Of a stretch of DNA of 64,000 bases, positions 48,378-55,195 are shown piece after piece. Where the stretch lies: assembly GCA_024401455.1 (NCBI GenBank), contig JAKSLA010000011.1, positions 1,894 to 65,893 of the forward strand, read 5' to 3'. Position numbers and translations under genes: made by a program. Below the pieces are notes generated by a model. That model did no database searches. It was not told the origin of the DNA and saw only the letters and a list, made by a program, of their open reading frames with translations. Position 1 is the first letter of the stretch. The number at the start of each line of letters is the position of its first letter. The DNA comes from Paludibacteraceae bacterium. Its GTDB lineage: Bacteria > Bacteroidota > Bacteroidia > Bacteroidales > Paludibacteraceae.

Positions 48378-48901
48378 CAAAGGGGATAAGAAAAGGGTCG
48401 GATAGGAGGAAATCTTATCCGGCCCTATGTTTTTTCTTGTGGTCTTGGGTGTGGAAACTCACTTGATATTTGTTGCCAGAGGTTGATATACAGGTGTATA
48501 GTAAGGCAAAAGACCTTTTGTGTCGTAAATGATAAGGCGGTGAATTTGTAACCATTGCCTTGAATACATTGACCTTGAATAATCAAGTAGAATGATTTTT
48601 TTGTATTTTTGTGAAAATCTCTTGGCATGCAAGAGAAATTTATAGAACTCAAAATATTAACTAATAAAAAATTAATGGCGAAATAACAATCTGTTTACAT
48701 ATTAGTGAGCTTTAAGCATTCATTCTGAACATATAGCCGAAAACCGCCAAATCTTCAGCTAACTCATGCACCGGAATAAATGTAAGTGTGCTTGCGTCCT
48801 TAAGGGCGTGAGCTGCCTTCGTTTATCGGTGTATGGGGTTTCTTGGCGGTTTCCCTGGCTGTTCAATAAACAGACGGTAGTTGCACGCCTTTTTTATATT
48901 T

Positions 48902-49120
48902 ATGGCAGTACATATAGGGAAACTGATAAAAGCGGAGATGGATAGGCAGGAGCGTGGCCCGTCTTGGTTGGCGAAGCACCTTCATTGCAATCGGCAGAAT
49001 GTCTATGACATCTTCAAGCGGGAGAGTTGCGACACGGCACTGCTATTGAAAATATCCAACATTCTGAAACGTGATTTCTTCCAAACGCTCAGCAAGAATG
49101 TGGGGAAGGAGGAGCCGTGA
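48902..49120 (+). CDS. Small helix-turn-helix DNA-binding protein
   Basis: MAVHIGKLIKAEMDRQERGPSWLAKHLHCNRQNVYDIFKR... is XRE-like. The start was chosen at the internal Met. Confidence 0.55.
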   Translation: MAVHIGKLIKAEMDRQERGPSWLAKHLHCNRQNVYDIFKRESCDTALLLKISNILKRDFFQTLSKNVGKEEP

Positions 49121-50711: not shown

Positions 50712-51093
50712 GAGCTCTTGAGAATAATATTGGCTCTGTCCTATTTTGTGACTGATAACGCACAAGGTTAATCCCCTAACGGGGAATCGGTTTGTTCAAC
50801 GCATTGTGCATTGTGATTCTACCAACATTAAACGCCTAACGGCGTATATATGCCAATTTTAATTCTAAAAAGTACCGTGGCACGGAAATATTAGCTTGAG
50901 TAGTCTTCACTCCTCGTGTGTGTTTAACGCGCATTCGCCGTTAGGGTTTCATGTAGGTAGCCCATGTTTTATGTCCGACAGCATATTTTTTCGAAGATGT
51001 ATAAGATAGTTATACGGCTATGTAATAATATATGAGCGGAAGCGTAAAAAAATGTGGTACGATGGTTGTTTGATTGTGCGAATAAGATGTGAT

Positions 51094-51252
51094 ATGTTTG
51101 CAAAAACTAATTTAAATTTTATTGATATGCCAAAGAATACTAGTGACAAAGGATTATTACCTAAACCTAATAATGGAGGAGAGATAATAACTCCAAAACC
51201 CAATAAGCCAAAGATTGATCCCAAAACAGGCAAACAGATTTTGAACGATTAA
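51094..51252 (+). CDS. Candidate small peptide (52 aa; 41 aa from the Met at 51127), Pro/Lys-rich with an internal GG
   Basis: MFAKTNLNFIDMPKNTSDKGLLPKPNNGGEIITPKPNKPKIDPKTGKQILND. Its stop lies 10 nt before the radical SAM gene. Coding status unproven. Confidence 0.35.
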   Translation: MFAKTNLNFIDMPKNTSDKGLLPKPNNGGEIITPKPNKPKIDPKTGKQILND

Positions 51253-51262
51253 ACCATATTGT

Positions 51263-52711
51263 ATGTTAGTAAAGCAATCCAAAAATACATTTATCCGTTT
51301 CATCGGTGAGTATGGATATCTCATGAATCAGATGACGAGGCATGACCGTATCTATGACGATATTGGTGCTGACTTTTTGAAGAGGATTTCGAGAAAAGGT
51401 CAAGAGGTTGATGCGATAGTTGCTGATTTAAAGAGACTTTATGGAGATAGTGTTTCAATTGATGAATTGAAGACTGATTTCTGTGAGTTTATAAAAGATC
51501 TGGCTGATCATAAATTTCTTGTGATTGGTGAAACTGAGGAGGATTTAGAGGCGAACGATGTATCATTCTCTTATAGTCTTGACAATCCGAAAACATTCAT
51601 CAATGATTTTTCTCAGTTTACAACGGATGATATCCAACAGGATTCTCAGACACTAATGGAACAATTGCAACGTAAATATTATCAACTTCATGAACTGCAG
51701 TTTGAGTTGACAAGTCGTTGTAATGAACGTTGCATTCACTGTTATATCCCTAATGCCAAAAAAGATGTGGGCGGTGACATGCCATACGAAAAGGTATGCT
51801 CCCTCATTGATGAGTTTGCTGAGTTAGGTGGTTTCGGTGTCACTCTTTCGGGAGGTGAGGTCTTTATCTATAAGGATATCATGAAGGTGATTCAATATTG
51901 TAGGGAGAAAGATATGTGCGTAGGAGTCTTGTCCAATCTGACAGAATTGAAGGACGAACAGATACCTTTGTTGAAGGAGGCGAATCTTTCTATTGTTCAG
52001 GTTTCTCTTTATAGTATGGATTCGGAAATCCACGATAGAATCACTTTACGAAAGGGCTCTCATGCGAAGACAAAGGCGGCTATTGAGAAGTTGGTGGCGG
52101 CTGACATCCCAGTGCAGATATCGTGTCCGATTATGAAAGCCAATAAAGAGGGTTACGATAAAGTACTTGCCTACGCCCAAAGTCTAAAGGTGAAGGCACA
52201 GACAGATTTTATCATGATGGCACAGGCGGATTTAAATACGCAGAATCTAGCGAATCGTATTGATTTGCAGGAGACGGAACAGGTGATAAGAGATATTATT
52301 GAACATGATGTGAATTACCGAGAACGCATATTAAAGATGGCTCCACTATCGACAAAAGAACCAGAAGTTTTTGCTAATGAACCTTTTTGTGGTGCCGGAG
52401 TCAATTCATGCTGTATTACATCTAATGGTGATGTTTATCCGTGTGCTGGATGGCAAGAATATACCGTGGGTAATGTTTATCAACTCTCTCTGTCTGATAT
52501 TTGGAAAAAGTCAGATAAGCTTCATTATCTGAGAGACTTGAAACAAAAGGATTTGCCGCAATGTATGGCGTGTGAAGCACGTGATTATTGTGCTCCGTGT
52601 TTAGTTCGTAACTACAATGAGAATGGTGGCGATATGTTGAAAGTGACAAAGCATTTTTGCGATGTTGCTTTCCTCAACAAAAGATTAAAAGAAGAGTATT
52701 TCGGGAAATAA
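51263..52711 (+). CDS. Radical SAM/SPASM peptide maturase with an N-terminal PqqD-like (RRE) domain
   Basis: 482 aa. The N-terminal ~95 aa look PqqD-like (FIRFIGEYGYLMNQ...ADFLKRIS...VDAIVADLKRLYG). CNERCIHCY provides the CxxxCxxC motif, and GGEVF is present. The Cys-rich SPASM tail is FCGAGVNSCCITSNGDVYPCAGW...CMACEARDYCAPC. Confidence 0.9.
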   Translation: MLVKQSKNTFIRFIGEYGYLMNQMTRHDRIYDDIGADFLKRISRKGQEVDAIVADLKRLYGDSVSIDELKTDFCEFIKDLADHKFLVIGETEEDLEANDVSFSYSLDNPKTFINDFSQFTTDDIQQDSQTLMEQLQRKYYQLHELQFELTSRCNERCIHCYIPNAKKDVGGDMPYEKVCSLIDEFAELGGFGVTLSGGEVFIYKDIMKVIQYCREKDMCVGVLSNLTELKDEQIPLLKEANLSIVQVSLYSMDSEIHDRITLRKGSHAKTKAAIEKLVAADIPVQISCPIMKANKEGYDKVLAYAQSLKVKAQTDFIMMAQADLNTQNLANRIDLQETEQVIRDIIEHDVNYRERILKMAPLSTKEPEVFANEPFCGAGVNSCCITSNGDVYPCAGWQEYTVGNVYQLSLSDIWKKSDKLHYLRDLKQKDLPQCMACEARDYCAPCLVRNYNENGGDMLKVTKHFCDVAFLNKRLKEEYFGK

Positions 52712-52768
52712 AAACAGAGGTATGCTGAAAATCTGTGATAGAGTAGGCTCACTAAAATTTATATCAAA

Positions 52769-52885
52769 ATGAAAAATTACAAAAAAGCAAAAGTGGTAGC
52801 AAAGAATGCTCCAGTTGGTTCTTACGCAGCAGGTTGTCCAGAGAAGGTAGGAAAATGCTTCTGGACATGTGAGATCAGAGAGTAA
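52769..52885 (+). CDS. Candidate RiPP precursor peptide, 38 aa with three Cys
   Basis: Below the ORF-track length cutoff. Hand translation gives MKNYKKAKVVAKNAPVGSYAAGCPEKVGKCFWTCEIRE. It lies 57 nt after the maturase stop. An 8-bp-stem hairpin follows (GGAGGTGT 52899-52906 / ACACCTCC 52925-52932). Confidence 0.5.
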   Translation: MKNYKKAKVVAKNAPVGSYAAGCPEKVGKCFWTCEIRE

Positions 52886-52952
52886 TTTTTGTGTAAATGG
52901 AGGTGTTGAATAGTTTGACTATAGACACCTCCTCTTTAAATCAGAAAAGGAA

Positions 52953-53132
52953 ATGGAAGATTTGATAATCATAAAAGAAAATTCAATACTAATTACTGAA
53001 AGTACAGTGCTTGATTGGTATAAAAAAATTACAAATAATCAAGAAGTTCCCCAAGAGGAGATGGATGCTATATTAAGAAGATTCAGAGAATTGGTTAATT
53101 ATAGGAATACAAACGGTACAAGGATGCCGTAA
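52953..53132 (+). CDS. Candidate 59-aa protein of unknown function
   Basis: Just below the ORF-track cutoff: MEDLIIIKENSILITESTVLDWYKKITNNQEVPQEEMDAILRRFRELVNYRNTNGTRMP. Its stop lies 3 nt before the amidohydrolase ATG. Confidence 0.4.
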   Translation: MEDLIIIKENSILITESTVLDWYKKITNNQEVPQEEMDAILRRFRELVNYRNTNGTRMP

Positions 53133-53135
53133 GGA

Positions 53136-53921
53136 ATGATTGACTCTCATATTCACATAGGACAATTCTATGACATTTACACAACATCAACAGAACTGAA
53201 GAATTTCCTTGACTCTGTTGATGTTGAGAAATGTGCAGTTTCATCGACAACGATATGTGAGGAGAATTATGCGAAGGTGATAGGGGAGATAAGATCTTTT
53301 ATCATTGAGTTTGGTGCGGCGAATGTGTTCCCGATTTTGTGGGTTACGCCACAAATGATTAAGAACAACGCTTTAAACTTGTTTTTGAATAGTGGAATTG
53401 TGTGGAGGTGTCTGAAGATTCATCCACAATTACATCCGAAAGGTTGGCCGGTTCGCGGCAAAAACTTTCGTGTTCTGATTGAATTGGCAAGGAAAATGCA
53501 TTTGCCTATTCTCATTCACACTGGAGCAGATGACTGTTGTCATGCTGGAAAATATTTAAAACTCATTAAACGGAATGCTGATATAAATTTTATCTTAGCC
53601 CATGGAAGACCATTAAATGAAGCGTTGGAGGTTCTGGCAGCGTGCCCTAATGCGTATGTGGACACTGCATTTATGTCAGTTGACTCTATCGTGGAACTTT
53701 GTAATCGAGGATTTTCCTCTCGTGTGCTTTGGGGATCGGATGTGCCAATACCGCTTTATTTTTTCAGAAACAGTCCCTCTTTTGATATGCGGGAATACTA
53801 CTTGTCGCAGATTGAAGATTTAAAATCAAGGGTGACTTTCGCTGATTTTGAGTTGGTGTCAGAAATGAATTTCAGTCGTGTCTTCTGCTCTGTTGAGAGC
53901 AAAGAGAATTTTTGTGTTTGA
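53136..53921 (+). CDS. Metal-dependent amidohydrolase-superfamily (TIM-barrel) protein
   Basis: 261 aa. N-terminal IDSHIHIG, then KIHPQLH, ILIHTG, ILAHGRP and LWGSDVP, consistent with amidohydrolase_2-type ligand spacing. Confidence 0.7.
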   Translation: MIDSHIHIGQFYDIYTTSTELKNFLDSVDVEKCAVSSTTICEENYAKVIGEIRSFIIEFGAANVFPILWVTPQMIKNNALNLFLNSGIVWRCLKIHPQLHPKGWPVRGKNFRVLIELARKMHLPILIHTGADDCCHAGKYLKLIKRNADINFILAHGRPLNEALEVLAACPNAYVDTAFMSVDSIVELCNRGFSSRVLWGSDVPIPLYFFRNSPSFDMREYYLSQIEDLKSRVTFADFELVSEMNFSRVFCSVESKENFCV

Positions 53922-54031
53922 AAATGATTGAATGATTAACACTGTGCTCGTGTTTTAAATTTGTGTTCTGGTGGCTGTGTTTTTTTTGCTGTTGAGAAAA
54001 AAGTTTGGTTTAATATTAATTGAGTAATTCT

Positions 54032-55195
54032 ATGAAATATAAAATATTAGGTGCTTTTTTTATAGCATTCGGAATGTATGAGATATATATGTTCGCAGAT
54101 GGTGATGGTATGGTTTTCTTCATAAGTATTTTGGTGTTTTTGACAGTATTAGCTTTCTTTAAAGGATGGATTAACAACCGACAAGAAACTGCAGAAAAGG
54201 CATCTGATAGTTTGGAACAAAATTTATCTCAAAAACCGTCAGAAAAAGACTTTGAAACAAAATCGTTAGAATATTTTGAGAGGCTCAGCCGTTGTGAGGA
54301 TGTATTTGTACAATACATCAAATTGGGCAAGGAATATTATTATTACAACAGTCGCGATAAAGAAGAAAGAAATGTTGCAAAGTTGAAAGTCATACAAACA
54401 TCAATAATGTCCTTCCAATCTTTTCAAATTGAAGAACATTTTCGGTCGTTAGGCATAACCTTTTGTAGCTATCCGCTCTCTTATAATTATGCATGTACAT
54501 CGGACATCGATGCGAATTACAATAATATGGGTGATTTTTTTGAGAACAATCGTTTCCCTGATTTGGATGTCGTGCCATATCCTTTACAAGGTGATACTTG
54601 CAGATATGGTGACATTCAAATTGATAAACTTTGTAATACAAAATATGAAGCTCAAAAATTGTCGGCAAATGAACTTGAAGCGTCTTTAGAAGATAGAATG
54701 AAAGAAGATGTTACGTGTATTCCCACCCTATTTAAGTGTGGCACAGTCTTTTATGGAAGGTGTGGAAATAACCCCATTACCAAATATGTAATAGCCAAAA
54801 ATCACTTACTTTCTGATATGACGGTAATGGGAGAAGTGGTAACCAAACAAATGGCGGGAGTAGTGCCTGTTGACGAACTCATAGAAAGTTTAAAAAAAGG
54901 ATATAGACGTATATCCCTTTTTTATGTGGAACCCAAAGATATAGACCTGCTCTTTAAGACAGCAGAAGAACTGAAATCGTATGAAGACAATAAGGGAGAG
55001 TTTTGTTCTATAATAATTAAAGAAGTGAAATCACTTTCTTCTTTCTACTCAGATTCGTTGAAAGATAAGTCGCTTTATTGGTTGTTAGAAAGTAGGTTGT
55101 ATGAATACAAGGAAACTGATGCCAAATATCAGCGGGTACTTGATGCCTGGGAGGAGAGGATGGAAATGTGGGATCGGCAACACGGCACCATTTAA
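54032..55195 (+). CDS. Hypothetical membrane-anchored protein (two N-terminal TM helices)
   Basis: MKYKILGAFFIAFGMYEIYMF...VFFISILVFLTVLAFF, then ~320 soluble residues with no recognisable motif. Start chosen at the first ATG. Confidence 0.55.
   Translation: MKYKILGAFFIAFGMYEIYMFADGDGMVFFISILVFLTVLAFFKGWINNRQETAEKASDSLEQNLSQKPSEKDFETKSLEYFERLSRCEDVFVQYIKLGKEYYYYNSRDKEERNVAKLKVIQTSIMSFQSFQIEEHFRSLGITFCSYPLSYNYACTSDIDANYNNMGDFFENNRFPDLDVVPYPLQGDTCRYGDIQIDKLCNTKYEAQKLSANELEASLEDRMKEDVTCIPTLFKCGTVFYGRCGNNPITKYVIAKNHLLSDMTVMGEVVTKQMAGVVPVDELIESLKKGYRRISLFYVEPKDIDLLFKTAEELKSYEDNKGEFCSIIIKEVKSLSSFYSDSLKDKSLYWLLESRLYEYKETDAKYQRVLDAWEERMEMWDRQHGTI

Follow-up and report, generated by a model that had tools for sequence, protein, structure and literature searches.

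The window, the whole 64-kb stretch of Paludibacteraceae DNA that was analysed, probably holds a RiPP maturation cassette with a three-gene core, namely a precursor peptide of 38 residues, a radical SAM/SPASM maturase with a PqqD-like recognition element (RRE), and a metal-dependent amidohydrolase. The gene set, its domains, its co-conservation, the peptide motif and a hairpin behind the peptide gene are directly observed, and the 38-aa peptide is presumably the substrate of the maturase. The trio occurs in hundreds of gut Bacteroidales species and has neither a name nor a known product. All six ORFs that a first-pass annotation had listed between 51052 and 55195 were found at their coordinates, on the plus strand and with short gaps (Table 1). 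Its central reading, an RRE-dependent radical SAM/SPASM peptide-modifying cluster, is supported by the conserved, co-oriented 38-aa partner, by the RiPP-maturase structural neighbors, and by an amidohydrolase linked in both directions, whereas the 66-aa ORF, the 59-aa ORF, and the membrane protein that it also listed were not borne out as components of the family.

Table 1. Features of the cassette and its surroundings in the window
Feature	Coordinates	Strand	Basis or remark
Small HTH-like protein, 79-aa ORF	48881..49120	+	Recurrence upstream of the cassette
Bacteroidetes-type promoter consensus match TTTG-N20-TAnnTTTG, TATGTTTG ending at 51100	51069..51100	+	Consensus match only
Pro/Lys-rich small ORF, 41 aa, MPKNTSDKGLLPKPNNGGEIITPKPNKPKIDPKTGKQILND	51127..51252	+	Conserved part of the 66-aa ORF 51052-51252
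Radical SAM/SPASM peptide maturase with N-terminal PqqD-like RRE, 482 aa	51263..52711	+	Pfam, homologs, AF2, Foldseek
Candidate precursor peptide, 38 aa, MKNYKKAKVVAKNAPVGSYAAGCPEKVGKCFWTCEIRE	52769..52885	+	Homologs, motif, profile search
Stem-loop right after the precursor stop codon	52899..52932	+	Folding against shuffles
59-aa ORF, lineage-specific accessory	52953..53132	+	Ends 3 nt before the amidohydrolase start
Amidohydrolase-superfamily TIM-barrel enzyme, metal-dependent (Amidohydro_2/TatD-like), 261 aa	53136..53921	+	Pfam, AF2, synteny
Membrane protein with N-terminal hydrophobic segments, 391 aa	54020..55195	+	Hydropathy, synteny

Conservation of the three-gene core

The core is kept across 80 related loci that were taken from a set of 440 species genomes. 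A peptide homolog adjoins the maturase gene at 74 of these, always on the maturase strand, and in all six others the flank is cut by a contig end; the amidohydrolase is present at 73 (72 on the same strand), usually 12-40 nt after the maturase. Such frequencies place the gene arrangement far beyond chance. As the first-pass annotation had stated, neither a PCAT transporter nor a leader peptidase is present in the window or in the family, and clustering of the neighbors of the 80 loci recovered no conserved transporter. Counting against a RiPP cassette, no conserved exporter or immunity gene was found among the family's neighbors.

The maturase resembles RiPP-modifying enzymes

Pfam upheld the three domains previously called in the maturase, namely PqqD (residues 32-86; 24.7 bits, the cut-off being 23.4), Radical_SAM (residues 148-292; E=1.3e-22), and SPASM (residues 376-438; E=1.7e-11). 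The C153-x3-C157-x2-C160 motif and nine cysteines of the C-terminal SPASM region are invariant among 18 homologs, and the AF2 model folds the N-terminal 100 residues into a strand-and-helix domain (pLDDT about 90). Foldseek searches of the PDB placed SkfB, SuiB, CteB, and TigE, all of them RiPP maturases, ahead of anSME, and among proteins of solved structure the closest in sequence are SkfB (2.9e-16), PqqE, CteB, and SuiB. Its best structural and sequence neighbors are the thioether maturases, and it shares with SkfB and AlbA (sactipeptides) and with CteB and PapB (ranthipeptides; SCIFF or freyrasin precursors) (i) a fused N-terminal PqqD-like RRE, a CX3CX2C core, and a Cys-rich SPASM tail, as well as (ii) a short Cys-bearing precursor encoded beside the enzyme. 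Unlike those systems, the present one resides in Bacteroidales rather than Firmicutes and has a dedicated amidohydrolase partner.

The maturase reached no NCBIfam equivalog cut-off. Its best scores were to the non-RiPP enzymes AhbD (127.5 bits versus 500) and NirJ2, slightly above MftC (108 versus 265) and AlbA (105 versus 850), and those to PqqE (97 versus 381), SkfB (73 versus 300), and PapB (64 versus 340) also fell short. This ranking counts against a RiPP cassette and, together with the strong hairpin after the peptide gene and the position of that gene 5' of the enzyme at 59 of 74 loci, agrees with a reading in which the enzyme is a non-RiPP SPASM protein (heme-related AhbD/NirJ, or sulfatase-maturing) and the small ORF a leader peptide with a regulatory role, the downstream genes being attenuated by its hairpin. 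We consider this highly improbable. Every NCBIfam score lies far under its cut-off, and the enzyme bears an N-terminal PqqD-like domain, which to our knowledge AhbD, NirJ, and anSME lack. Further, the amino-acid sequence of the peptide, with its invariant Cys framework, is kept over about 1,950 clusters, neither heme-pathway nor sulfatase genes recur in the neighborhood, and at the 15 loci where the peptide lies 3' of the enzyme, the window included, attenuation of the enzyme gene is impossible.

A conserved Cys-bearing peptide as the probable substrate

Members of the peptide family follow the pattern MKxYxKx4AKNxPxGSYAAGCP, then a Gly/Ser/Asn-rich variable middle of 7 to 31 residues, and then a C-terminal CxxC[E/D]xxx. 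The A, N, G-S-Y, A-G-C, and two C-terminal Cys positions are invariant, as is GSYAAGC, and C-x2-C-[E/D]-x3 forms the C-terminal end of 64 of 76 peptides. A profile search collected 1,952 sequence clusters; the NCBIfam check that had been suggested for the peptides was run, and no cluster matched a Pfam or NCBIfam model, the only names being "hypothetical". The string SYAAGC was not found in the literature searched, and the source GenBank record lacks the 38-aa ORF, its accessions and locus tags passing from the maturase directly to the 59-aa ORF. Of the small ORFs flanking the enzyme, it is this downstream candidate precursor that is conserved beside homologous maturases, whereas the 66-aa and 59-aa ORFs are not.

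The peptide would dock through its N-terminal part (MKxYxKx4AKN...) on the PqqD-like domain, whereupon the radical SAM core would abstract a hydrogen atom from it and, with the SPASM auxiliary clusters, install at least one intramolecular crosslink involving the invariant cysteines, namely Cys23 (in GSYAAGC) and the C-terminal Cys30 and Cys34 beside Glu35. Sactipeptide- or ranthipeptide-type thioethers are the most plausible products. Cys-X3-Asp/Glu is the motif that PapB crosslinks, with a tolerance of n = 0-6 (PMC9413430), and the usual C-terminal CxxC[E/D] of the family may likewise be read as a Cys-X3-Glu/Asp motif. Two observations count against this account: the acidic residue is missing from 6 of the 76 peptides, and the window peptide has CFWTCE, which is Cys-X4-Glu and not Cys-X3-Glu.

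The stem-loop after the precursor gene has an MFE of -21.1 kcal/mol (z = -3.5), and none of 200 shuffles folded equally well. Hairpins at this position are family-wide, with z < -2 in 84% of 76 precursor genes (median -4.5) versus 4% of controls, and their stem sequences differ between loci. The element looks like a terminator, an attenuator, or an mRNA-stabilizing hairpin, and would shape transcript levels of an operon whose proposed promoter lies near 51069-51100.

A dedicated amidohydrolase

The 261-aa protein matched Amidohydro_2 in Pfam (E=6.2e-10), in agreement with its earlier annotation. H5, H7, K94, H128, H156, and D202 are invariant, and this HxH/K/H/H/D set is consistent with a metal-dependent hydrolase whose metal site is intact. 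The AF2 model (pLDDT 95) matched LigI-like hydrolase, LigY, ACMSD, IDCase, and TatD in Foldseek at 12-16% identity; these nearest folds are lactonases, C-C hydrolases, decarboxylases, and a hydratase, not peptidases, which counts against a RiPP cassette. The link to the maturase holds both ways: two amidohydrolase homologs picked regardless of context both abut a radical SAM/SPASM gene with a family peptide upstream. The enzyme, whose translation appears to be coupled to that of the maturase in most genomes, would then hydrolytically remove the leader or a C-terminal follower. Bottromycin offers a precedent, in which the amidohydrolase PurAH removes the follower peptide (PMC10885120). PurAH/BotAH is likewise a metalloenzyme of the amidohydrolase superfamily; the window enzyme differs in having the Amidohydro_2/TatD-type folds above as its closest ones. 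Bottromycin maturation uses YcaO enzymes; a YcaO gene lies beside a window-type cassette only at L036, at L091, and, as a fragment, at L023.

The pathways to PQQ (PqqA/D/E) and mycofactocin (MftA/B/C/E) likewise pair a radical SAM/SPASM enzyme and a PqqD-type recognition element with a tiny peptide bearing few invariant residues, in a compact operon without a transporter, and there a hydrolase acts on the peptide once it has been modified, as the amidohydrolase may do here. The peptide could accordingly be a scaffold for an intracellular small cofactor or metabolite, the Tyr/Cys of GSYAAGC being crosslinked to the C-terminal Cys/Glu, the amidohydrolase excising the product, and the variable middle being only a spacer. 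This alternative, which we regard as unlikely, would explain a three-gene core without transporter or immunity gene, the tight coupling of hydrolase to maturase, the two invariant short motifs around a variable segment, the presence of PqqE and MftC among the top named matches, and the core-genome site of the cassette in one very common species, between rpoA-rplQ and gyrB. However, the RRE is fused here and free-standing in the PQQ and mycofactocin systems, no PqqB/C, MftD/F, conserved oxidoreductase, or other redox or cofactor-using partner lies nearby, and the neighbors are fast-evolving and lineage-specific. Moreover, the peptide middle is long and variable and occurs in Segatella copri as discrete alleles, a pattern more in keeping with a variable core that has a function than with a neutral spacer.

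Lineage-specific genes around the core

Outside the family core, individual lineages have added genes of their own, which in the window are the 41-aa ORF, the 59-aa ORF, and the gene for the membrane protein. The 66-aa ORF, which the first-pass annotation had offered as a second candidate precursor, is ruled out as a family-wide precursor: the family motif is missing from it, and relatives occur at two loci only. It is probably a 41-aa gene, given the promoter-like site and the comparison with the close relative L088, whose 32-aa counterpart is 69% identical (pN 0.17 versus pS 0.63). The other counterpart, at L050 (30 aa), is the sole one among the 80 loci, the other 79 lacking it, and no relatives linked to a cassette turned up in a metagenome scan. 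TTTG-N20-TAnnTTTG is a Bacteroides promoter consensus, matched 8 times in the window against 2.95 expected; one match lies just 5' of the operon, and both of its boxes, TTTG and TAAGTTTG, are retained in L088. The 59-aa ORF, earlier counted as part of the cluster, has no homolog across the 80 loci, other loci carrying unrelated small ORFs in this variable slot; it is a real gene shared only with L088, where it is 58% identical (pN 0.26 versus pS 0.77).

The 391-aa membrane protein (one hydrophobic segment scored with a 19-residue hydropathy window) had no match in Pfam, NCBIfam, or PADLOC, and 1.84 billion representative proteins included just 4 relatives. L001 and L088 carry a syntenic counterpart behind the amidohydrolase, with 24-34% identity versus 86-91% for the maturase, and any hydrophobic ORF follows the amidohydrolase at only 24 of 60 loci. 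The protein is a fast-diverging, clade-restricted near-orphan and only a tentative member of the system; with four relatives and synteny in the nearest relatives only, the processing, export, or immunity role once suggested for it is unsupported for the family.

Its rapid divergence would suit a secreted, species-specific signal or antimicrobial, exported via unlinked systems, with the membrane protein or a Ser/Thr kinase as immunity factor or receptor. The peptide core differs between species as well as between the S. copri alleles, and a Hanks-type membrane Ser/Thr kinase adjoins the cassette at 27 of 80 loci. SCIFF ranthipeptides of Clostridia are similarly class-wide, maturase-paired, and linked to quorum sensing (PMC8326336); the present system, too, spreads through a whole order/class without its own exporter, although its precursor family is unrelated to SCIFF. 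We nonetheless find a secreted product quite improbable, since the peptide has neither a signal sequence nor a GG-type leader, no exporter is conserved, the membrane protein is a near-orphan, hydrophobic ORFs of any kind follow the amidohydrolase at a minority of loci, and the kinase is missing from the window. The Bacteroidales radical SAM clusters of Fernandez-Cantos et al. (2023) come from the same order and also place a radical SAM/SPASM enzyme beside small precursor genes, but have GG-motif leaders and peptidase-containing ABC transporters, both absent from the window cassette, and that report does not mention an amidohydrolase (PMC10352776).

Farther upstream, the 79-aa ORF, which likely starts at a Met at about 48902, has homologs 5' of the cassette at 9 of 80 loci. 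Homologs also occur there in the P0100 loci, which are very common and whose version of the protein gives a weak HTH_3 match. The DNA of the window ORF is conserved with L001. Its recurrence suggests that the protein may be a regulator bordering the cassette on the 5' side.

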